Origin: an uncultured delta proteobacterium
GTDB lineage: Bacteria > Desulfobacterota > RBG-13-43-22
Direction: 5' to 3'
Assembly: GCA_963802945.1 (NCBI GenBank)
Contig: CAWDKY010000016.1
Location: forward strand, 224,001-288,000
Length of the DNA stretch: 64,000 nt
The notes below the pieces were generated by a model. That model made no database searches and was not told where the DNA came from. It worked only from the letters and a program-made list of their open reading frames with translations. This document shows positions 271 to 17,781 of the stretch, piece by piece. The position numbers were made by a program, and so were the translations under genes. Each line of letters starts with the position of its first letter. Position 1 is the first letter of the stretch.

Positions 271-1284
271 ATGATTGTTCTCGGCATTGAAACCTCCTGT
301 GATGAAACTGCAGCTTCTGTCTTGAAGGATGGGAAAGGAATCCTTTCCAATGTGGTCTATTCCCAGATCGCCCTTCACCGGCCTTACGGCGGAGTGGTCC
401 CCGAACTGGCTTCTCGAAGGCATTTGGATAATATCGTTCCGGTGATCGAAGAAGCCCTCACCCAAGCCGGATTGAATTTGGAAGCCATAGAAGGCATTGC
501 CGTCACCCGAGGACCCGGACTGGTGGGTGCCCTGTTGGTAGGCTTGTGCTTTGCCAAATCGTTATCTGCGGCCAGGCGGATTCCATTATTGGGAATCAAT
601 CACATCGAAGGCCACATCTGTTCCATTTTTCTTGAAAAGGAAGTCCCCTTTCCTTTTTTATCTTTGACGGTTTCCGGCGGACATACCAGCCTGTTCTTGG
701 TTAAGGAAATCGGGTCTTATGAGACTTTGGGTCAAACCCGTGATGATGCCGCCGGCGAGGCCTTTGACAAAGTTGCCAAGCTTTTAAATCTGGGGTATCC
801 GGGTGGAGGGATCATAGAAGCCTTAGCAGAAAAAGGAGAGCCCAGGATTCGGTTCCCCAGGGCCATTCCATCGGCAGATTCCCTGGATTTCAGCTTCAGC
901 GGGATCAAGACCGCTGTAGTCAATTACGTCAAAGGATTTACGACCCCCCCCAATAGCGAAACAGGATTATCCATTGAGGATATAGCCGCCTCTTTCCAGG
1001 AGGCTGTGGTGGATATGTTGATCAAAAAGGTCACCCAGGCCCGGGAAAAATATAGGATCGAACGTCTGGTCCTGGCTGGAGGGGTGGTCTCTAACGGTTA
1101 CTTACGCCGCCGTTTCCACACTATGGCCTGGGAAGAGGGATTGGATCTATTTATCCCTTCTTCCCATCTTTGCACCGATAATGCAGCCATGATTGCCTGG
1201 GTTGGAAACCATTATCTGGAAAGAGGATACAAGGATTCCCTGGATATCGATGCCTTATCGAGGTGGAAGGTGGGGGCGTCCTAA
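271..1284 (+). CDS. tsaD: tRNA N6-threonylcarbamoyltransferase TsaD
   Basis: LGIETSCDETAA, GGVVPELASRRH, GPGL, HIEGH, VSGGHT, TRDDAAGEAFDK, DNAAMIA motifs; ATG at 271. Confidence 0.97.
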   Translation: MIVLGIETSCDETAASVLKDGKGILSNVVYSQIALHRPYGGVVPELASRRHLDNIVPVIEEALTQAGLNLEAIEGIAVTRGPGLVGALLVGLCFAKSLSAARRIPLLGINHIEGHICSIFLEKEVPFPFLSLTVSGGHTSLFLVKEIGSYETLGQTRDDAAGEAFDKVAKLLNLGYPGGGIIEALAEKGEPRIRFPRAIPSADSLDFSFSGIKTAVVNYVKGFTTPPNSETGLSIEDIAASFQEAVVDMLIKKVTQAREKYRIERLVLAGGVVSNGYLRRRFHTMAWEEGLDLFIPSSHLCTDNAAMIAWVGNHYLERGYKDSLDIDALSRWKVGAS

Positions 1285-1511: not shown

Positions 1512-2363
1512 CTAGGAAGTCCCGTAACTGTGCAATCCCGACAATAGGAAGTTGACCCCGAAATAGGTAAACAGTACGCAGACAAACCCGATGATCGAAA
1601 GCCAGGCGATTCGGGATCCGTGCCAGCCTTTCATCATCCGGGCATGCAATAGGGCGGCATAAAGCAGCCAGGTGATTAAGGACCAGGTTTCTTTGGGGTC
1701 CCAGCTCCAATACGTCCCCCAGGCCGAATAAGCCCAGATCGAACCCGTGGCGATACCCACGGTCAACAATAAAAATCCGATGATAATCGTCTGGTAAATC
1801 AATTCATCCAGCATTGGAATTCCGGGGAAATAAGACGATAGGCCTTGATGATCCTTTTCCTTTTCGGTTACAGGTTTCTTGGTCAAGTACATGATACTCA
1901 GACTGCAGGAAACAGCAAAGGCTGCATAGCCTAAAAAACAGGTAATGACATGGGCTATCAACCAATTACTTTGCAAGGCCGGGAGTAGGGGCTGGATGCG
2001 GGTGTTGATATCGGGAGAAAAGGAGGCATAGGCCATGGACAGAAAAGCAAAGGGGGTGGCAAAAACTCCGATAGTTCTGGACTTTGTTTTCCATTCAATC
2101 CCGATATAAATCAGGGCGATGGTCCAGGCAAAAAAGATCAAAGACTCATAGAGATTAGAAAGCGGGGCATGACCGAATCCCATTTGATAGGATTCAATCC
2201 AACGCAGGATGATGGCCCCGGTGTGGATAAGAAAAACAATCCGGATGACCCAGCCGGCCAATCGACCCATACTCTGTTTTTTGAACACCAAAAAAATCAG
2301 ATAGAAAAGGGCTGAAAAAAAGTAGCCGAAAGTTACTAAACCAAGTAAAAAAGAACTGTTCAT
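1512..2363 (-). CDS. ccsA: Cytochrome c biogenesis system II protein, CcsA/ResC type
   Basis: WWD motif WAYSAWGTYWSWDPKETW, GHAPLSNLYES, C-terminal GLHSY, multiple TM helices (naming of ccsA/ccsB is swapped in some taxa). Confidence 0.95.
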   Translation of the reverse strand: MNSSFLLGLVTFGYFFSALFYLIFLVFKKQSMGRLAGWVIRIVFLIHTGAIILRWIESYQMGFGHAPLSNLYESLIFFAWTIALIYIGIEWKTKSRTIGVFATPFAFLSMAYASFSPDINTRIQPLLPALQSNWLIAHVITCFLGYAAFAVSCSLSIMYLTKKPVTEKEKDHQGLSSYFPGIPMLDELIYQTIIIGFLLLTVGIATGSIWAYSAWGTYWSWDPKETWSLITWLLYAALLHARMMKGWHGSRIAWLSIIGFVCVLFTYFGVNFLLSGLHSYGTS

Positions 2364-2364
2364 T

Positions 2365-3726
2365 TCAACTGCTCCGTACCTTCTCAGTTAATTGCTCCAT
2401 TTTGCGGACAAAGGCCCCTCGGTTCTTGTGGGCCGTTCCGCCCATCAAAATTTCCGTCCTTGACTCTCCTTGGGAATCCTTTTTCTCCCTGTTCCAGATC
2501 CAAACCTGTTGATGGGAAAAATAAAAGGTCACAATAAATCCGATAAGCATCAGTGACGCCCCGATCCAGATAAACCAGACCCCCGGGTCCTGATTGACCT
2601 GCAATCCGGTCAGATACTGGGTTTTGAGTTCCTGGACCTTCACATGGAATTCTCCCAGCCGGTTGCCGTGAAACTCGGGGTGGTTGGCCAGGATCCAGCC
2701 CTGATCGACTTCTTCTTGATCTTTAATTAAGATCATTCCTATGGCCGGTCCCATATCCGATAGATTGCTGACGTATCGAACCGCCTGTATGTCAAAAGGG
2801 GTTTTCGGCACAGGAACCCTTTCTTCCATTTTAAGGTCTAATTCCGATTCCTGCCCGCCTTTTTCTAAAGCGAGTTTGATGGAGACGGGAAGCTGATCCC
2901 AAGAGGATTGATAAAAATGGATGCCTTTATAAGAAAAAGGATCATTAACCCGGACAGCGGCCTTCTGCTTTTCTATTCCTTGCTCTTGGATACTCAGATC
3001 CGACCGGTATTCTTTGGGCATCCCGTTGGGGTAGAAGGTCATGGCAAAGTGATCCAATCTGACGGAAAAGCCTAATTTTTTAGGGGGGTAACCCTCTTTG
3101 ATGAAAACCTGGTCTGCGCTCTCTCCTTCCTTGAGTTCCAAAAAGCCTTTAAAACCGTATAAAGACCCGATGATGGCCCCTAAAAAAATAACCAGGACGC
3201 TCAAATGGATCAGGTACACCCCGAAGCGGCTGAATCGACCCTTTTCCAGATAGAAGGCTGTTCCCTGTTCTGAGGAGAGGGGTTTCATCTTTCTAAAGTG
3301 CCAGTCAAACAGGGATTGTGCCCAAGCCCTGGAGTCCAGGGGCGTTTCTTTCAAAGTGAGCTTATGGTGAAAAGGCAGGGTTTCAAACAGATGCTCGGAA
3401 ACGGACCGCGGAAAAGCCATGGCCACCTTCCAGGTGGAAGAAATTCGTTTCAGGGAACAAACCACCAGATTAACGGTCAATAAAACCAAGAGCCATTGAA
3501 ACCACCAGGAATGATACATATCATAAAGCTGAAAAAAGCGAACCAGCTTATCGGCTAATAATCCATAGCGCTGCCCATAAAACGCCAGGGGTTCTCCCTG
3601 GGGCAACACAGTCCCCAGGATGGAGGTTATGGCCAGAGTGATGAGGAGGACCAGGGCCAATCTAATTGAGGAGAAAAAATTAATGATCTCAGACCCGATA
3701 CTTTTTGAAGATTTTGTATTAGCCAT
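2365..3726 (-). CDS. ccsB: Cytochrome c biogenesis protein, ResB/Ccs1 (CcsB) type
   Basis: SSIRLALVLL..SILGTVLPQ, DMYHSWWF, GVYLIHLS, TGLQVNQDPG; adjacent to the CcsA/ResC gene; ATG at 3726. Confidence 0.93.
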   Translation of the reverse strand: MANTKSSKSIGSEIINFFSSIRLALVLLITLAITSILGTVLPQGEPLAFYGQRYGLLADKLVRFFQLYDMYHSWWFQWLLVLLTVNLVVCSLKRISSTWKVAMAFPRSVSEHLFETLPFHHKLTLKETPLDSRAWAQSLFDWHFRKMKPLSSEQGTAFYLEKGRFSRFGVYLIHLSVLVIFLGAIIGSLYGFKGFLELKEGESADQVFIKEGYPPKKLGFSVRLDHFAMTFYPNGMPKEYRSDLSIQEQGIEKQKAAVRVNDPFSYKGIHFYQSSWDQLPVSIKLALEKGGQESELDLKMEERVPVPKTPFDIQAVRYVSNLSDMGPAIGMILIKDQEEVDQGWILANHPEFHGNRLGEFHVKVQELKTQYLTGLQVNQDPGVWFIWIGASLMLIGFIVTFYFSHQQVWIWNREKKDSQGESRTEILMGGTAHKNRGAFVRKMEQLTEKVRSS

Positions 3727-3877
3727 ATTTGGATAGTTACCATAACTGAAAAGATGGGACAAGTTATTAAATTCTCCGGCCAAGGTCTTTATAAAACAAT
3801 GGGAAGGGATTGGTTGAAAGGATTGACTGGCCGGACTAATTGTGATACTCTTTTAAATACTAAATAAGGCAAAGATT

Positions 3878-5164
3878 ATGTTGGATTTAAAATTGATAAG
3901 GGAAAGATTGGCTTGGGTGCAGGATCGGCTGTCCCTGCGGGGTCAGGATTTGCCCTGGGAGACCTTTGAGTCTTTGGATAAAGAACGGCGGGAGATACTC
4001 CAGGAGGCAGAGACCCTGAAGCATCGTCGGAATACGGTTTCCGACCAGATCGGGCGTTTGAAACAGGAAAAGAAGGAGGCCCGGGAGGCCATTGAGGAAA
4101 TGCGTCAGGTCTCCAAACGGATCAAAGAATTGGATGATTCCCTGGCCGGGATTGAAGAACAATTTTCTGCTATCCTGCTCACCTTGCCTAATATCCCGCA
4201 TGAGACGGTTCCTGTAGGTTATACCAGCGAGGACAATCCGGTTGTTCGGACCTGGGGTGAGAAACCGGTTTTCTCATTTACGCCCCGGCCTCATTGGGAG
4301 ATCGGGGAGAACCTGGATATTCTCGATTTTGAACGGGCCACTCGTATGACCGGAGCCCGTTTTGTGATCTATAAAGGGCTGGGGGCCCGTCTGGAACGGG
4401 CCTTGATCAATTTTATGCTGGAACTGCACACCACCAAACATGGTTACACTGAAATCCTGCCACCTTTTATGGTCAACAGCCAGAGCATGATCGGGACCGG
4501 CCAATTACCCAAATTTCGAGATGAACTATTTAAATTGGAAGGGTGGGATTATTTTCTGATTCCAACGGCCGAAGTACCGGTGACCAATCTCTATCAACAG
4601 GAAATCCTTTCCGCCCAGGAAATGCCCAAATATTTTGTTTCCTATACCCCTTGTTTTCGATCCGAGGCCGGTTCTTACGGCAAGGACACCAGAGGGCTTA
4701 TCCGCCAGCATCAGTTCAATAAGGTGGAATTGGTGAAGTTCTGTGCCCCCGAAGAATCTTATGCTGAACTGGAAGGCTTGCTGCAAAACGCCGAAGAGGT
4801 CCTCAAGCAATTGAATCTGCCTTATCAGGTGGTCAGCCTTTGTACCGGAGATCTCGGATTTGCTTCCGCCAAAACCTATGACATTGAGGTCTGGCTTCCG
4901 GGGCAAAATCTTTATAGGGAAATATCTTCGTGCAGCAATTTTGAAGATTTTCAGGCCCGCCGGGCCAACATCCGTTTCCGTCGGGAAGGGCGGACCAAGA
5001 CCGAATTGGTCCATACGCTCAATGGATCCGGATTGGCCGTAGGCAGAACCCTGGTGGCCCTCCTGGAAAACTACCAGCAGGCAGACGGCAGCGTTTTGAT
5101 CCCGCCGGTCCTCCAGCCTTATATGAACGGCGTCAGTTGTATTAAAAAAAAGGCTGAAGACTGA
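3878..5164 (+). CDS. serS: Seryl-tRNA synthetase
   Basis: MLDLKLIR start, [52 protein letters not shown]. Confidence 0.98.
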
Positions 5165-5248
5165 AGGCCGAAGGTTTGAGGTTGCACTTCAAAGTTCAAA
5201 GTTAAAAAACCTTAGACCGGATACCTTGACCCTTAGACCCTGTACCCG
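5152..5248. repeat. Inverted 7-mer tandem array between convergent serS and queD
   Basis: gctgaagactgaaggccgaaggtttgagg ... ccttagaccggataccttgacccttagaccctgtaccc; begins inside the last serS codons. Confidence 0.6.
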
Positions 5249-5251
5249 TGT

Positions 5252-5623
5252 TTATTCGCCGAAATAAGTGGCACAGGCAGAATCCGATTCCCAAACAGAG
5301 ACCTTGCTCACTCGTACCTGATTATCATTCAGATGGCGGCTTAATTCATGAAAGAGATAACGGGCAATGTGTTCCGAGGAAGGATTTTCTACTTGAAAAG
5401 GAGCCAATTCGTTCAGGTACTTGTGGTCCAGCCCATCCAGGACTTCCTGAGTAACAGCTTTCATTTCTCCGAAGTCCCTGACCAGACCTGCTGAATTCAA
5501 TTGGACGGCCCGGACAAAGACCTCCACCTTCCAATTGTGACCATGGAGTTGTTCGCATTTTCCCTGATAATTCCTTAAATGATGGGCGGCTGCAAATTGG
5601 GTGATGATGGTTAGTTCAAACAT
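5252..5623 (-). CDS. queD: 6-carboxy-5,6,7,8-tetrahydropterin synthase
   Basis: FAAAHHL, CEQLHGHNW, LDHKYLNE, NPSSEHIA, VWES motifs. Confidence 0.95.
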   Translation of the reverse strand: MFELTIITQFAAAHHLRNYQGKCEQLHGHNWKVEVFVRAVQLNSAGLVRDFGEMKAVTQEVLDGLDHKYLNELAPFQVENPSSEHIARYLFHELSRHLNDNQVRVSKVSVWESDSACATYFGE

Positions 5624-5840
5624 GGATCAGGATATCTTTGAAGTTTTTAAAATTTTGAGACGGTTTTGAAACTTTCTGGGCCAGTCCTTTGAGGTCCACT
5701 TGCAAACTGGCTATGTCCTGATGACGTTTTTCTATCAGACGTTCCAGTTCGGTCAGACCGTATTGAACCACCTCGATCTCTTTTTTCAGGAGTTCTTCCT
5801 GTATCCGTTGATTAATTTGTTTGATGAGTCCTGGATCCAT
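5616..5840 (-). CDS. Small coiled-coil hypothetical protein
   Basis: 74-aa ORF in tandem with queD; removing one base near 5673 gives QKFQNRLKILKTSKIS* ending at 5627, so a possible indel. Confidence 0.6.
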   Translation of the reverse strand: MDPGLIKQINQRIQEELLKKEIEVVQYGLTELERLIEKRHQDIASLQVDLKGLAQKVSKPSQNFKNFKDILIHV

Positions 5841-6004
5841 GGCCGATAATGGCTCCCTTGCTCCGGAAATTAATTCAAGTTACGGCAATTGATTATAGTA
5901 TGAAAGAAACCCTCTTCAAAGTCAAGGATTGGTTTAATCATCACTACAGGGTTGACAGGATGAAACAGGCATGCTATTTTTCCTCTAATTGAAGGAGAAT
6001 AATT

Positions 6005-7660
6005 ATGAAACAAAAAAATGCTCTTACTTCATGCCGAAAAGGTTTTTGGGGATTGACTTTTATCCTTGCTTTCTTCCTGACTGCGAACTCTTGGGCTGAA
6101 GGAGTTAAAAAGGTGGCTATCCTTCCTTTTGCCATCAACTCAGCGGAACGGATGGACTTTTTGCGGGAAGGGGTTCAGGACATGCTTGCTTCGCGCCTGA
6201 CCTGGGAAGATAAAGTCCTGGTCCTAGACAGCACCCAGGTTCAGAATATCAGGGAAAAAATATCAGGACTTGTGGATGAAGCCCGCGCTGTTGAGATCGG
6301 AAAACAATTGGGAGTAGATGTGGTCCTTTGGGGCAGTATCAATGTCTTGGGTACCACGGTCAGTCTTGATATTAACTTGGTGGATATTGCCCTTCGCCAG
6401 CCCCTGAAAAAATTCTATGCCCAAGCCAAGAATATGGATGAAGTTATTATCAGGGTCAACGAATTGTCGGACACGATTAATAAAAAGGTGTTTGATCATG
6501 TCCGGAAGTCTCCAACTTCATCGGAGGCGGCAGCTCAACCCAAAAGTCAGGAGCCGTCAGCGGAAAATGCTCCTTCCGGGAAGGCCCCTCTTTCACTTAA
6601 GGGATTTACGATTAACCCCCTTTCTCCTCAGATTATTATCAATGCCGGTGGCTTTGATATGGCCGGTGTCTGGCGAAGCACTATCTTACCTTTTGCTGTT
6701 GTCGACATGGCCTTCGGTGATTTAGAAGGAGACGGCAAAATTGAAACGGTTTTGATCAGCAAGAACCGAGTCTATATCTATCGCTATATTCAAGATAGAT
6801 TCGAGTTGGTCAAAGAGATTCGCGGAGGTCGTTGGGATAATTACCTGAGTGTGGATGTGGCCGACATTCATGGGACCGGGACCCCACAAATTTTTGTTAC
6901 CAATTACCGGGACAACACACTACGATCCTTTACCCTTTCCTGGTCCCAGGGGGAGTATAAAACCATCGCCAAAAATGTCCCTTATTACCTTCGAGTCCAT
7001 CAGTTGCCCGGAAGAGGGGCTGTCCTGTTGGGCCAGCAAAGATATGGCGAGTTGTTTTTTGATGACAAAATAGTCATTCTTTCCTGGAAAGAGGGACGGT
7101 ATGTTGAGGTGGAGCAATTGAAAGTCCCTAAGGGATTGACGGTTTTTGATTTTGTTTTACTGGAAGACAATCCAGACGGTTCTCAAGAGATCCTCCATGT
7201 CAATCGCAATAACCGGTTAATGGTTTTGTCAGAAAAAGGCAAAGCCAAATATTCCAGCAGCGATTCCTACGCGGGTACAATTAACCATCTCAGCCAATCG
7301 TCGAATACCAAAGATTTGTTCGGTGGGCCCGCGGAGGATAAAGAGCTGGCTTATATCCCGGCCCGTTTAGTGGTTACTTCGGTATCAAACCCGGGGAAAA
7401 AGGAGATCATCCTGAATAAAAACAAGGGGTCGTTTTTTAATTTTCTGGACCGGTACCGCGCCTTCAGTAGTGGTGAGATCTATTCCATCTCCTGGGACGG
7501 AGGCAATATGAAAGAAAATTGGAGGACCCCGACCATCAACGATTATATCGCCACTTTCAATGTGGGTGATTTTAAGAATAACGGCCAGAAGCAACTGGTG
7601 GTGGGGGCTGTTCAGAGTACCGGATACCTTTATCTCCGATGGCCGCAGTATCTTGTATAG
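6005..7660 (+). CDS. Exported protein with TolB-N/CsgG-like N-domain and FG-GAP/VCBS repeats
   Basis: Signal peptide, KVAILPF..N motif, repeats GDLEGDGKIE, ADIHGTGTPQ, GDFKNNGQKQ; the C-terminus probably continues in another frame (FISDGRSILYSYDL...) to about 7694. Confidence 0.75.
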   Translation: MKQKNALTSCRKGFWGLTFILAFFLTANSWAEGVKKVAILPFAINSAERMDFLREGVQDMLASRLTWEDKVLVLDSTQVQNIREKISGLVDEARAVEIGKQLGVDVVLWGSINVLGTTVSLDINLVDIALRQPLKKFYAQAKNMDEVIIRVNELSDTINKKVFDHVRKSPTSSEAAAQPKSQEPSAENAPSGKAPLSLKGFTINPLSPQIIINAGGFDMAGVWRSTILPFAVVDMAFGDLEGDGKIETVLISKNRVYIYRYIQDRFELVKEIRGGRWDNYLSVDVADIHGTGTPQIFVTNYRDNTLRSFTLSWSQGEYKTIAKNVPYYLRVHQLPGRGAVLLGQQRYGELFFDDKIVILSWKEGRYVEVEQLKVPKGLTVFDFVLLEDNPDGSQEILHVNRNNRLMVLSEKGKAKYSSSDSYAGTINHLSQSSNTKDLFGGPAEDKELAYIPARLVVTSVSNPGKKEIILNKNKGSFFNFLDRYRAFSSGEIYSISWDGGNMKENWRTPTINDYIATFNVGDFKNNGQKQLVVGAVQSTGYLYLRWPQYLV

Positions 7661-7706
7661 TTATGATTTGGGAGAGGTTAAACACCGGCCCTAAAACGGG
7701 TCATGT

Positions 7707-7783
7707 GGCGGTGTAGCTCAGGTGGTCAGAGCATGCGGCTCATATCCGCAGTGTCCGGGGTTCAAGTCCCTGCACCGCCACCA
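7707..7783 (+). tRNA. tRNA-Met (CAT), elongator type
   Basis: GGCGGTG/CACCGCC acceptor stem with paired 1-72, TAGCTCAG D arm, TGCGG-CTCATAT-CCGCA anticodon arm, GTTCAAGTC T loop, encoded CCA; Ile2 not formally excluded. Confidence 0.93.
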
Positions 7784-7956
7784 AAAAAAATCTAATTACT
7801 CCAACGGATCAATATACTTTTGATAAGAATTAGAGGCTTTGGGTTTTCCTCTCAAGGCCTCTTTCCTTTATCTTTCCTCCTTGAGGATCTGCGTTGTGGC
7901 CTTGATCATGAGTTGGGCTGATTTCCCGTCCTGAATGCTGATGATGGAGTTGCGGA

Positions 7957-8640
7957 ATGAAAACTTGGGCGTATACATTTTTTTTCATCATGGCCTTTTG
8001 GTTAAGCCTGGGATCGTCCTTCTCCGGTGTTCTTTTTCCTTCCATCCGGCTTTCAGAAACCGATTATCATTTTAAAGAAGTGGAAGAGGGGACCATCCTC
8101 TCCCATGATTATTTGGTGAAGAATACCGGCTCGGCAACCCTTCAAATTCTTGATGTCCGCCCGGGCTGAGGCTGCTCGGTGGCCCATTTCGATCGGGCCA
8201 TCCCCCCTGGAGGGGAGGGGAAAGTGACCTTAACCTTAAATTTAAAAGAATATCAAGGACCGGTCTGGAAATCCGCAACGATCTTAAGCAACGATCCTCA
8301 ACAACCTTCTATTGCCGTGAACTTACACGGTACGGTCCGTCCTCATATTGAAATACGGCCGGCCTCTTTTGTTCAATTCAAGGGAGCAGAAAAGGGAGAT
8401 CAGGAAAGGGTGATTGATTTAATAACCACTTCTCAACCTTTTCAAATCCTGAAGATTGAAAATACCTTGGGGGGAAAAATCGCCTATCAGTTGGAAACCA
8501 AGGTCGAAGGCCGGCATTATCGCCTTAAAATCATTAACCGCCAAAGCAAGGAAAACTATTCGGGAATACTCAAGTGTTTCACCAACCATCCCAAAAAGCC
8601 GGAACTTCAGATCCAAATCAGCGGCACTCTTGGCGGATAG
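7957..8640 (+). CDS. DUF1573-type (Ig-like) exported protein with in-frame UGA (8167-8169), candidate selenoprotein, 227 aa
   Basis: ORFs 7957-8169 and 8179-8640 share a frame: ..VKNTGSATLQILDVRPG-UGA-GCSVAHFDRAIPPGGEGKV.., matching the DUF1573 pattern NTG..PL.I..V..sCGCt.....IpPG. Confidence 0.85.
8179..8220 (+). promoter_or_regulatory. Putative bacterial SECIS-like hairpin(s) downstream of the UGA
   Basis: GTGGCCC-ATTTCGATC-GGGCCAT stem begins 10 nt after UGA; a second hairpin CCCC-TGGA-GGGG follows. Confidence 0.55.
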
Positions 8641-8649
8641 AGGTAAGCG

Positions 8650-9867
8650 ATGCATATTGTGGCCCTGACCCATCTTTTTTTTCCGGCCCAGGGAGGAACG
8701 GAAATCTCCCTTCGGCAATGGACTAAAGAACTGGTTAAAAGAGGACACCAGGTGACCGTGATAACCTCCAATCAGACGGCCCTGGAAGCATTTAAGCGTC
8801 CCCGAACCGACCACTCTTTGAAAGCCGAAGAGGTCCGGGAAGGGATTCGTATCTTACGATTACCCCTTACCCCCAACCAACAATATATCCTGGCCAAAAC
8901 AGGGGCCATGGCCTTGCGAAGCCGTCTGCCCGGCGGAGACCGCCTCTGGTTCATGACCCAGATTCCCCATCTGCCCCAGATGATCAAAACAACCCAGGAG
9001 CTCAATCCGGATTTGATCTATGCCGTTCCGTTTCCGACCGCCACTATCTATTATGCCTCGATGGCCGCTCAAAAAACAGGCTGCCCCTGGGTTATTCAAC
9101 CTCATTTGCATTTGAAAGATATAAACTCCTCTCTAATGAAAATCCTTCGCTGGCTATTCCCCAAGGCTTCGGCCATATTGAGCAATACCTTGGCCGAGAA
9201 GGCTTATCTGATAAAGCAGGGCATTCAAGAAGAAAAGATTCATGCCCTGGGACAGGGAATAGACCTTTCTCTCCTGGCGGGAGGCGATGGCCATCGATTC
9301 CGATCAGACCACGGCCTGACGGATGAACCGTTGATCCTTTTTCTAGGCCGTAAGGTGGAAAACAAAGGGATCGACACCCTGCTGGAAGCCATGCCCTTGA
9401 TCTGGAAAGGGGAAGCTCGGGCGGTTCTAGTCCTGGCCGGTCACTCCAGCCCCTATTTTCAAAGCTTATACTACGGTCATCCTCTATCCCATGATCACCG
9501 AATTATCTCCGTGGATGATTTTCCGGAAGAAGAAAAAAAAGACCTGCTGAAGGCCTGTGATCTTTTGATTCTGCCCTCCCAGGCTGAAAGTTTCGGGGTG
9601 GTATTTCTGGAGGCCTGGGCCAAAGGCAAGCCGGTGATCGGAGCCCGCATACCTGCCGTAGAGGAGATGATCGTTGATGGAGAAGATGGATTTGTGATCC
9701 CTTATGGGGATCCGGTCAGTCTGGCCATCGCGGCCCAAAAACTGATTAAAGATCCCGATCTACGCCAGAGAATGGGAGAAAAGGGAAAATTCAAAGTAGA
9801 GCATGATTTTGAAATCAACCGGGTCACCGATCGCATGGAGGCCTTGTTTTTAAGCCTGATGAAATAA
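8650..9867 (+). CDS. Glycosyltransferase family 4
   Basis: GGTE N-motif, LFLGRKVENKG, PSQAESFGVVFLEAWAKGKPVIG (EX7E). Confidence 0.93.
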   Translation: MHIVALTHLFFPAQGGTEISLRQWTKELVKRGHQVTVITSNQTALEAFKRPRTDHSLKAEEVREGIRILRLPLTPNQQYILAKTGAMALRSRLPGGDRLWFMTQIPHLPQMIKTTQELNPDLIYAVPFPTATIYYASMAAQKTGCPWVIQPHLHLKDINSSLMKILRWLFPKASAILSNTLAEKAYLIKQGIQEEKIHALGQGIDLSLLAGGDGHRFRSDHGLTDEPLILFLGRKVENKGIDTLLEAMPLIWKGEARAVLVLAGHSSPYFQSLYYGHPLSHDHRIISVDDFPEEEKKDLLKACDLLILPSQAESFGVVFLEAWAKGKPVIGARIPAVEEMIVDGEDGFVIPYGDPVSLAIAAQKLIKDPDLRQRMGEKGKFKVEHDFEINRVTDRMEALFLSLMK

Positions 9868-10824
9868 TGACCGTGCCCTTCTCTGAAAAAAAGATTGATG
9901 AGGACAATCCCGCCAGGGCGGGACAGATGGATAATTTTCAACAACCTGTAACGGTATCGGTGGTCATTTGCACCCTCAACCGTGAAGAACCCTTGATCCA
10001 CGTCCTCGAACTTTTAAAGGAGCAGAGCGTCAGCGCCTTTGGAGATCCTGGTTGTCGATCAAAGCCGGGAACACCAATCAACAACCTGGAATTATTTAAG
10101 GGGAAATCAGGACCGCATCCGCTTACTGACCCTTCTTTCCCCATCGACCACTGCCGCCCGCAACCTGGCCCGGAAAGAAGTCAAGGGTGATCTTGTCCTT
10201 TTCTTGGATGATGATGTCCTTTTTTATCCCACTCTGATACAAAATCATCTGGAAAACTATAAGGACCAGAATCCAGGGGCCGTATCCGGCAAGGTCCTTT
10301 ATGACGGAAGTGAGGAAAATGATTTGCCTTGGGCCGCCAGAATCACCTGCAGCGGGAAATACCTACGAAATTTTACCACCAACCAACGATGCCTGGTCCC
10401 TACTCTTTACGGTTGTAACATGTCTATTCGTCGGGACGTCCTTCTGGAAGTCGGAGAATTTGATTTGAATTACTGGGGTAATCTTTTATGGGAAGAAGTG
10501 GACTATGCCCTACAGATCAGAAAACACGGCTATCAAATCCTGTATGATCCCAAGGCGGCCGTCTTTCATGTCATGGCCCAGAAAGGGGGCAGCAGAAACC
10601 CGCCTCCCCGGCAATATCTGGAAAGCACGGTCTTCAACGATTGGTATTTTTTCTTTAAATATATTTCTGTCTGGTTCTGGCCGTTTTTATTGTACCGCCA
10701 GAAAAAAACTTGGCTTCAATATGTTGCGGCCAATAGAGGCAACAGCATCCCCTTGATTAAACAGACGATTCGAGCCTTTCAACTCGCAAAATTAGAGCAG
10801 GGAAAATATTGTCAAAAATTGTAA
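9867..10824 (+). pseudogene. Glycosyltransferase family 2, frameshifted near 10032 (possible assembly error)
   Basis: VSVVICTLNR in one frame; EILVVDQS, AARN, FLDDD, GCNMS, EEVD in the next frame. Confidence 0.8.
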
Positions 10825-11285: not shown

Positions 11286-11324
11286 CTTGGAGACCGTTGG
11301 TCAGGGGATGAACGGTTCTTCCCT

Positions 11325-11357
11325 ATTCTGAATTCTGACTCCTGGATTCTGAATTCC
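11325..11357. repeat. Heptamer array ATTCTGA/CTCCTGG family
   Basis: attctgaattctgactcctggattctgaattc; same family at 43128-43167, 44208-44290, 48497-48533 and 52603-52782. Confidence 0.8.
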
Positions 11358-16250: not shown

Positions 16251-16276
16251 GGATTGCTTTACCGTAACAATATGGT

Positions 16277-16399
16277 GTCATTCCGGTCCCGCATCAAGTG
16301 CGGGATAAACTCCAGCCGGAATCCAGGTCAATTAAAGCCTCAAACGCCCTGGATGCCGGATCGGGCCTGCCCCGTATTTGATACGGGGTCCGGCATGAC
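16277..16399. repeat. REP-like double palindrome (GTCATTCCGG..CCGGAATCCAG..CTGGATGCCGG..CCGGCATGAC) with inserted micro-palindromes
   Basis: First 50 bp are the exact reverse complement of 17707-17756; second arm matches 25343-25393 at 47/51. Confidence 0.9.
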
Positions 16400-16639: not shown

Positions 16640-17500
16640 TTACTTCTTCAGCTTTTCTTTAAAGAAGGCTATAGTACGCTGCCAGGCCAGTTGGGCCGCC
16701 TCCTTATTATATCGTCCGGGGTTGGTATCGTTGTTAAAAGCATGTTGTGCCCCCGCATACATGTATATCTTGTAGTCGATGGCTGCCTTCTTTAGAGCGG
16801 CTTCATAAGCCGGAATGCCTCCATTGATAAATTGATCGATCCCGGCATAATGGAGGAGCAAAGAAGCCTTGATCTTGGGAACATCTTCAGGAGCAGGCTG
16901 TCTTCCATAGTAGGGTACCACAGCCGATACATCCGAAGAGTGTACGGCCAGTTGGTTGGCCATCCCCCCTCCCCAGCAGAAGCCTACGACTCCAACCTTA
17001 CCGGTCGAAACAGGATTGGTTTTTAGAAATTTTACTGCCGCAAGATAGTTTTGTAAGGTTGAAGGCTCATCCAGTTTTTGAATCAACGCCGGCGCTTTTT
17101 CCTGATCTTCCGGAGTCCCCCCTAAAGGAGTTAAGGCATCAGGGGCGACAGCCAGAAAACCCTCCAAAGCGATACGCCTGGCAACGTCTTCGATATGAGG
17201 AACCAGGCCCCTGTTTTCATGGATGACGAGCACGCCAGGCTGCTTTTCCTTGCCTTTCGGCCTCGCCAAATAGGCCCGAATGTCGCCTGTCGCTCCCGGA
17301 TATTTTATAGTTTCCACGAACAGACGAGGTTCATCCTTGGGAACGATCTCGGCTTGAGCGAAATTTTTTTCCAATAAAGGCAGCAGAGTATAAGCAGCGG
17401 CAGTCCCACCGGCCAGAACAGCCAACCTCTTGATAAATTCACGGCGATCAAATAATTCATGGGTGTAGTCGTCGATCAATTCAATGATTTTTTGATCCAT
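16640..17500 (-). CDS. Dienelactone hydrolase family (YghX-like) with twin-arginine-like N-terminus
   Basis: DRREFIKRL, IHENRGL, GFCWGG, HAFNND. Confidence 0.92.
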   Translation of the reverse strand: MDQKIIELIDDYTHELFDRREFIKRLAVLAGGTAAAYTLLPLLEKNFAQAEIVPKDEPRLFVETIKYPGATGDIRAYLARPKGKEKQPGVLVIHENRGLVPHIEDVARRIALEGFLAVAPDALTPLGGTPEDQEKAPALIQKLDEPSTLQNYLAAVKFLKTNPVSTGKVGVVGFCWGGGMANQLAVHSSDVSAVVPYYGRQPAPEDVPKIKASLLLHYAGIDQFINGGIPAYEAALKKAAIDYKIYMYAGAQHAFNNDTNPGRYNKEAAQLAWQRTIAFFKEKLKK

Positions 17501-17637: not shown

Positions 17638-17781
17638 GAGGTTCTTTCAAATCTCTTAAATTTCGTCACACCGGCGAAAGCCGGTGTCCAGAATGCATTT
17701 AAAAGACTGGATTCCGGCTGGAGTTTATCCCGCACTTGATGCGGGACCGGAATGACATCTCTGGACTTTTGCAAGAGCCTC
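17638..17781. mobile_element. MITE-like element, 14-bp terminal inverted repeats enclosing a REP-like dimer
   Basis: GAGGTTCTTTCAAA / TTTGCAAGAGCCTC (12/14); inside are GTCACACCGGCGAAAGCCGGTGTCCAG ... CTGGATTCCGG..CCGGAATGAC. Confidence 0.7.

Follow-up and report, generated by a model that had tools for sequence, protein, structure and literature searches.

The closest described relatives of the gene reported here belong to the OS_HP2 family, which was introduced as a new selenoprotein family from the deltaproteobacterial symbionts of Olavius algarvensis and is listed with two selenoproteins and no Cys homologues (Zhang and Gladyshev 2007, PMC1976440, Table 2). The term OS_HP2 also occurs once in PMC2398784, and passages of two reviews (PMC9312934 and PMC13188914) carry a "DUF1573 domain-containing protein" (PF07610) with the motif UGC. 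A curated model also exists, NCBIfam NF041425, under the name "OS_HP2 family (seleno)protein". Both the family and its UGC motif have been published, and the locus described below is no new kind of system. A first-pass annotation of this DNA, made from the sequence, had left open whether the family was catalogued as a selenoprotein; it is, as OS_HP2 since 2007, as the DUF1573 protein with motif UGC in the two reviews, and as NF041425. The same annotation had called the gene hidden, a word that holds at most for gene callers and not for the family.

Reading frame, family membership and fold

The window, by which we mean the whole 64,000-nucleotide stretch of DNA that was analysed, contains at positions 7957-8640 of the plus strand a single reading frame with a lone in-frame TGA at 8167-8169, followed by GGC TGC TCG. 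The features of the gene are as follows.

7946..7949, plus strand: Shine-Dalgarno-like GGAG, 7 nt 5' of the ATG, by direct reading of the sequence
7957..8640, plus strand: complete coding sequence of the predicted OS_HP2/DUF1573 selenoprotein, 227 aa with U71; ATG at 7957, TAG at 8638-8640
7957..8028, plus strand: hydrophobic N-terminus (residues 1-24), probable Sec-type signal peptide or membrane anchor, from the sequence and a model helix at residues 4-18
8047..8334, plus strand: DUF1573 / HYDIN-VesB-like Ig domain (residues 31-126), from Pfam and VIA-align
8167..8169, plus strand: in-frame TGA, almost certainly Sec (U71); homologue column 24 TGA versus 8 TGC/TGT, n = 32
8167..8175, plus strand: U-G-C motif, TGA GGC TGC = U71-G72-C73, in a modelled turn between strands 62-69 and 73-78
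8344..8631, plus strand: second Ig-like beta-sandwich (residues 130-225), from model strands at 131-224, with no Pfam match

Under the standard code the frame falls into an ORF of 70 aa at 7957-8169 and another of 153 aa at 8179-8640, which starts with GTG. The ORF listing and the sequence both bear out the earlier observation that TGA-GGC-TGC-TCG alone stands between them. Translation with TGA as U yields 227 residues with one recoded codon, in the context ...ILDVRPG-U-GCSVAHFDR..., so the read-through product with its DVRPG-U-GCS segment stands as first annotated. The signal peptide claimed along with it comes down to a hydrophobic N-terminus, which probably serves in export or anchoring.

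Family assignment was made with the U read as C. The protein scored 109.1 bits against NF041425, above the curated cut-off of 100, with residues 33-127 aligned to positions 2-97 of the 98 in the model; in a six-frame search of the genome with the stop read through, the same model gave 96.5 bits. Pfam DUF1573 (PF07610) matched residues 31-126 with 66.5 bits (gathering score 26.1), and the HYDIN/VesB-like Ig domain PF22544 matched with 31.5 bits. The window protein thus shares with OS_HP2 the Pfam domain, the U-G-C motif, an in-frame UGA followed by a hairpin and a score above the family cut-off, and both come from the former Deltaproteobacteria. Nothing of substance separates it from the published OS_HP2 family.

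An AlphaFold2 model was built from a 32-sequence alignment of homologues. The model (mean pLDDT 90.0, pTM 0.72) consists of two beta-sandwiches at residues of about 29-128 and 130-225, preceded by an N-terminal helix at residues 4-18 of low confidence (pLDDT 57-60). The U71-G-C73 segment is placed in the turn that joins strands 62-69 and 73-78. Comparison of the first domain by VIA-align returned the VesB Ig domain of Vibrio (Z 11.9, rmsd 1.9 over 96 residues) and HYDIN PapD-like domains (Z 10.5-10.6), along with VesC, pilus chaperones and MSP domains. The second domain resembled an S-layer SbsC domain (Z 10.0) and an MSP-like domain (Z 9.8), and 2qsv, an uncharacterised protein of Porphyromonas gingivalis, matched over both domains (Z 10.8). 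A Foldseek search of the PDB likewise returned HYDIN-type domains of ciliary central-apparatus proteins together with 2qsv, and a sequence search of the PDB gave no match at E values up to 1. The fold of the window protein is therefore that of the PapD-like, ASH and HYDIN-VesB Ig domains (PF22544; PDB 4lk4, 6bqm, 2ys4 and 2qsv). These are structural or binding modules which suggest no chemistry for the window protein; among the best 50 matches listed by Foldseek and VIA-align there were generic Ig, PapD and ASH modules and no redox or metal protein. To our knowledge, no Sec or Cys-x-Cys site has been described in domains of this kind.

Homologues and the hairpin after the recoded codon

The window protein alone retrieved five related loci. 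The family model was run against the genome of the window and 60 relatives, 61 in all, and matched in 35 of them, with exactly one TGA in many of the matches. The resulting alignment of 32 sequences from 31 loci has, in the column of U71, TGA in 24 sequences (23 genomes and one paralogue) and a Cys codon in eight (six TGC, two TGT). C73 is kept in 31 of the 32 sequences and G72 is at least 90% conserved. Both flanks of the column are conserved down to 23-30% identity, and residues N56, G58, L62, G85 and G88 are invariant throughout the set. The homologue check proposed in the first-pass annotation, TGA aligned to Cys with conservation on both sides, accordingly returned the pattern expected of a Sec codon. 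The Cys-type DUF1573 proteins (PF07610), with C-G-C or C-A-C, have the same two-domain architecture and the same conserved residues as the window protein; they differ in carrying Cys for Sec and in that the hairpin after the codon is much weaker or absent. The eight Cys forms among these 32 sequences differ from the 2007 table of PMC1976440, where OS_HP2 has no Cys homologues.

Several further loci were observed in the course of the searches. One genome carries a Sec form (VGUGC, 1204-1851) and a Cys form (VTCGC, 244-852) in tandem, both on the minus strand (locus L025, G059:C37). Another locus (L071, G006:C102, about 520-1224, plus strand) holds a DUF1573-type gene with the TGA in a U-A-C motif (VTTSUACTT); a match similar to it (L072, G003:C41) aligns through the later part of the protein only. 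A query of 301 genomes of the phylum with the paralogue P0002 gave 71 match rows; counted over the whole match, one TGA was present in 43 of these and no TGA in the other 28.

A bacterial SECIS element is a stem-loop that follows the UGA directly and carries a G in its apical loop (PMC1976440, Fig. 5 legend). The corresponding feature of the window gene lies inside the coding sequence.

8178..8202, plus strand: SECIS-like hairpin inside the coding sequence, 8-bp stem, 9-nt loop AUUUCGAUC, -14.5 kcal/mol

Its stem begins 8 nt and its loop 16 nt after the TGA. Seven of the eight modelled pairs (GTGGCCC/GGGCCAT) are those of the GC-rich 7-bp stem that had been noticed at first reading, and that stem is real. 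The loop AUUUCGAUC contains a G, and the loop positions G25 and A26 are at least 90% conserved among the homologues. In bacterial SECIS elements the usual spacing between UGA and loop is about 16-37 nt.

All Sec forms fold a hairpin that starts about 9-12 nt after the TGA. Minimum-energy folds of a 33-nt region (+10 to +42 after the TGA) had a mean energy of -11.9 kcal/mol in the Sec forms (n = 24) versus -4.7 in the Cys forms (n = 8), with a one-sided Mann-Whitney p of 8e-5 that is computed over relatives which are not independent of one another. As a control for the encoded peptide, each sequence was compared with 300 synonymous recodings, for which the codon usage of the window's genes was applied to all sequences. 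For the window hairpin (peptide SVAHFDRAIPP) one of the 300 recodings was as stable, the recodings having a mean of -5.2 and a standard deviation of 3.0. In 16 of 24 Sec forms, against one of eight Cys forms, the natural sequence fell in the top 5% of its own synonymous recodings. The difference in energy between Sec and Cys forms and the recoding control both argue for selection on RNA structure.

Four further results speak against such selection. In a fixed register, 74.6% of the cells of the stem are paired versus 29-49% when the stem is slid along the alignment. The covariation suggested as a check of the hairpin failed to appear in that register, the score being 0.166 versus 0.168 in shuffles. 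RNAalifold found no consensus pairs in 22 aligned stretches of the UGA plus 45 nt. Hairpins are present in the distant members, where their sequence and register differ, and these shifted registers account for both the missing consensus and the non-significant covariation. A dinucleotide shuffle of an 81-nt stretch was not significant (z -0.33), and an Rfam scan of 7800-8800 with E up to 10 returned six chance-level snoRNA-type matches and no SECIS family. Bacterial SECIS elements commonly vary in sequence and register, and are too varied for good coverage by Rfam.

Selenocysteine machinery and alternative readings

The source genome (G000; 4.37 Mb in 72 contigs) was searched for selA, selB, selC and selD, as the first-pass annotation had advised. 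Three of these are intact: selA (627 bits), selD (392 bits, with an in-frame TGA of its own) and tRNA-Sec (74.3 bits, anticodon TCA confirmed by ARAGORN). The fourth, selB, is present but frame-split. The selD gene itself lies at G000:C17:415477-416388 on the minus strand (locus L010), and its one in-frame TGA makes the selenophosphate synthetase a selenoprotein in its own right. Of the 23 genomes with a Sec form, 21 contain selA. The presence of selA was also considered as a discriminator between genomes with Sec and Cys forms and was discarded as uninformative, selA being present in 56 of the 61 genomes.

The frame-broken selB is the only real doubt specific to this genome. It lies at G000:C30:178945-180834 on the minus strand (locus L002:220-2139), its best piece scores 266.4 bits against a cut-off of 242, and it is the sole selB-class match in the genome. 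It is spread over three frames (ORFs of 254, 160 and 260 aa) because of three single-nucleotide insertions relative to the intact 646-aa frame of a congener; selB is intact in four of the five congeners searched (G005, G012, G001 and G002), with open frames of 646-684 aa. Should the insertions be genuine, this strain could no longer insert Sec. The gene would then be a selenoprotein by descent whose decoding has just been lost through inactivation of selB, the UGA would terminate translation, and the gene would be a fresh relic. The open selB frames of the four congeners and the lack of a second selB-class match in the genome speak for such a loss, but the same kind of frame break occurs in two other genes nearby. 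In 20 kb around selB, 15 ORFs of G005 have hits in G000, and three of these, selB and two others within 8 kb, are broken across frames there; in the reverse comparison one of 17 G000 ORFs is frame-split in G005. Frame splits in both directions indicate that single-base indel differences are scattered in both assemblies, and the split selB is more likely an assembly error than a real loss. A recent loss is also at odds with the intact selA, tRNA-Sec and selD, the last of which has kept its TGA. Furthermore, G000 and G005 share an identical sequence over the 63 nt that begin with the TGA, and the derived amino-acid changes in the selenoprotein number 10 in G000 versus five in G005, with six ambiguous, which is no clear excess. 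We regard the fresh-relic reading as improbable, although it survives better than the other two alternatives.

Far less probable is an error of sequencing or assembly at the TGA, or a nonsense mutation that has turned a Cys-type DUF1573 gene into a pseudogene. Single-base errors or variants do occur in this assembly. The TGA, however, stands at the same codon in 23 genomes whose proteins span 27-91% identity, with the downstream part fully conserved, and a TGA shared in this way cannot be explained by a sequencing error or a nonsense mutation. The hairpin, moreover, goes with the TGA forms and not with the Cys forms. Contigs from the metagenome runs X2, X3 and X4, which are about 93-94% alike, span the TGA and are without difference at 8145-8248 among the rows listed, a point that weighs weakly against an error. 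Run X1 covers 8422-8625 only. Among the runs listed as carrying the region there was no RNA run, and their DNA shares were all at or below 0.18.

Equally improbable is that the locus makes two separate chains, an exported peptide of 70 aa terminated by the UGA and a protein of 153 aa initiated at GTG 8179: both ORFs exist under the standard code, but the DUF1573 match (residues 31-126) spans the UGA, the Cys homologues are continuous, the AlphaFold2 model forms one domain across the site with pLDDT 89-98, and GTG 8179 falls within the hairpin stem.

The selenoprotein reading is the one we retain. What looks like an internal stop is almost certainly a selenocysteine codon, in a two-domain protein that is probably exported. 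The replacement by Sec of the first Cys of the DUF1573 CGC, proposed at the outset, is borne out by the TGA/Cys column, the hairpin, the presence of selA, selD and tRNA-Sec and the NF041425 score. It is in our judgement highly probable that this is a genuine selenoprotein gene of the known OS_HP2/DUF1573 family, in an uncultured member of the Thermodesulfobacteriota, with its UGA decoded in the way proposed below.

Gene neighbourhood, a short paralogue and proposed function

The neighbours of the selenoprotein gene in the window are listed below.

6005-7660: gene upstream of the selenoprotein gene, encoding an FG-GAP repeat protein that looks exported
7832..7862, plus strand: terminator-like hairpin after the FG-GAP gene, 12 pairs and a T-rich tail, from a consensus scan
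8650..9867, plus strand: GT4 glycosyltransferase gene (Pfam Glycos_transf_1 and Glyco_transf_4), 9 nt after the stop codon of the selenoprotein gene

A GT4 gene is the next gene downstream at all 17 loci from f1, the bacterial family of the window, and at none of the 13 loci from other families of the phylum. In f1 the GT4 gene is probably an operon partner that is co-transcribed with the selenoprotein gene; in the window it is followed by a GT2 gene. The literature passages on OS_HP2 contain no mention of this conserved neighbour. A GDP-mannose 4,6-dehydratase gene lies upstream in two family members (L026 and L033). Outside f1 the neighbours vary and include HAD hydrolases (L029 and L031), FAD_binding_2 proteins (L031 and L045) and c-type cytochromes (L044 and L052), according to a Pfam scan of 57 flanking ORFs selected by eye among the 138 of at least 110 aa at 16 loci. 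Neither these 57 ORFs nor the neighbours in the window gave a match to a copper-related Pfam family.

On the upstream side, the terminator-like hairpin at 7832-7862 suggests, from the sequence, that the selenoprotein gene is a transcription unit apart from the FG-GAP gene; the scan gave five terminator-like sites versus 3.1 expected in shuffles. The FG-GAP gene was considered as a conserved partner and rejected, since it lies upstream in two of the 31 loci only, one of these being the window itself. Synteny with the congener G005 breaks at 7761-7783, where 1874-7783 corresponds to its contig C34 and 7761-9896 to its contig C83. The break falls shortly before the selenoprotein gene, as expected if the FG-GAP gene is no conserved neighbour. 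Elsewhere in the window, a perfect 51-nt inverted repeat (16276-16326 and 17707-17757) brackets a dienelactone-hydrolase gene at 16640-17500 on the minus strand; both arms are palindromic in part, and the contigs of G005 contain many copies. A stretch of about 33 nt at 11324-11356, by an acetyl-CoA hydrolase/transferase gene, recurs with 94-100% identity on at least 10 G005 contigs.

The source genome also encodes a second protein with a DUF1573-like domain and an in-frame TGA.

G000:C53:12481-12906 (= L023:1459-1884), minus strand: short DUF1573-like paralogue, 142 aa, KIKYY-U-STK, without a second Cys

The TGA is present in 19 of 19 copies cut from f1, and the short-type rows of the 61-genome search all contained one TGA, so that no TGA-less copy was omitted from this count. 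Its hairpin has 96.4% of cells paired versus 5-54% when slid, with one compensatory change of A-U to G-C in four of 14 distinct sequences. The short paralogue scores 44 bits against NF041425, below the cut-off of 100, and 34.4 bits against DUF1573. In the 301-genome sample of the phylum, rows of at least 90 bits were confined to f1 and a Cys form of the short paralogue was not found. A profile search of 1.84 billion representative sequences returned, as its best 150 matches, proteins that were all 665-7635 aa long with 4-33 repeated Ig-like stretches. A conserved stretch after the stop codon of the short paralogue was considered as an RNA element and set aside; it is the first part of a HAD-hydrolase gene that overlaps the 3' end of the paralogue in a different frame. 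It is possible, and we propose it tentatively, that this protein of about 140 aa, whose N-terminus is hydrophobic and which carries the motif KIK[YF][YT]-U-[SG]-x, is a second, distinct DUF1573 selenoprotein that is not separately catalogued. With a lone Sec and no partner Cys, it could form no internal selenylsulfide.

For the U-G-C protein of the window we propose the following mechanism. SelB together with Sec-tRNA(Sec) would recognise the hairpin at 8178-8202 after the UGA at 8167-8169, and Sec would be inserted in place of termination. The N-terminal hydrophobic segment would export or anchor the 227-aa product. Outside the cytoplasm the protein would then present two PapD/HYDIN-like Ig domains, with U-G-C in a tight turn at one tip of the first domain, and this turn would be the functional site. 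A selenol and a thiol two residues further on would most likely undergo selenol-thiol/selenylsulfide cycling or act as a soft-metal clamp. Sec in U-G-C is expected to have a lower pKa and a higher nucleophilicity than the Cys forms, and the C-G-C homologues would do likewise but less reactively. Motifs of the C-x-C type are found in the C-G-C shuttle disulfide of yeast Erv2 and in the CXC of the copper chaperone CCS. As a working analogy, these motifs may be compared with U-G-C in having two chalcogens with one small residue between them in an exposed turn. Erv2 and CCS have unrelated folds and no sequence relation to the window protein, and they serve as a lead only. The redox or metal-binding role suggested in the first-pass annotation remains an inference. 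Co-transcription with the GT4 gene in f1 would place this role in the cell envelope; the pairing suggests an envelope role in this lineage, and a link to glycan assembly may follow from it.

Because of the UGA, standard gene callers split genes of this kind in two, and the OS_HP2 gene merits correct annotation for that reason. Results from the homologue search demonstrate that Cys homologues of OS_HP2 exist and that Sec forms occur alongside Cys forms, in one genome even as adjacent genes. The GT4 pairing, constant in one family of Thermodesulfobacteriota, provides the first clue from gene context to what DUF1573 does. If the short paralogue is indeed a second selenoprotein, the DUF1573 Ig-like scaffold has twice made a selenium-bearing exported protein in this lineage. 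Its lone Sec would point to the role of a metal or substrate ligand and not to a dithiol-like redox couple, while the obligate GT4 pairing of the U-G-C form would tie selenium chemistry to the assembly of envelope glycans.
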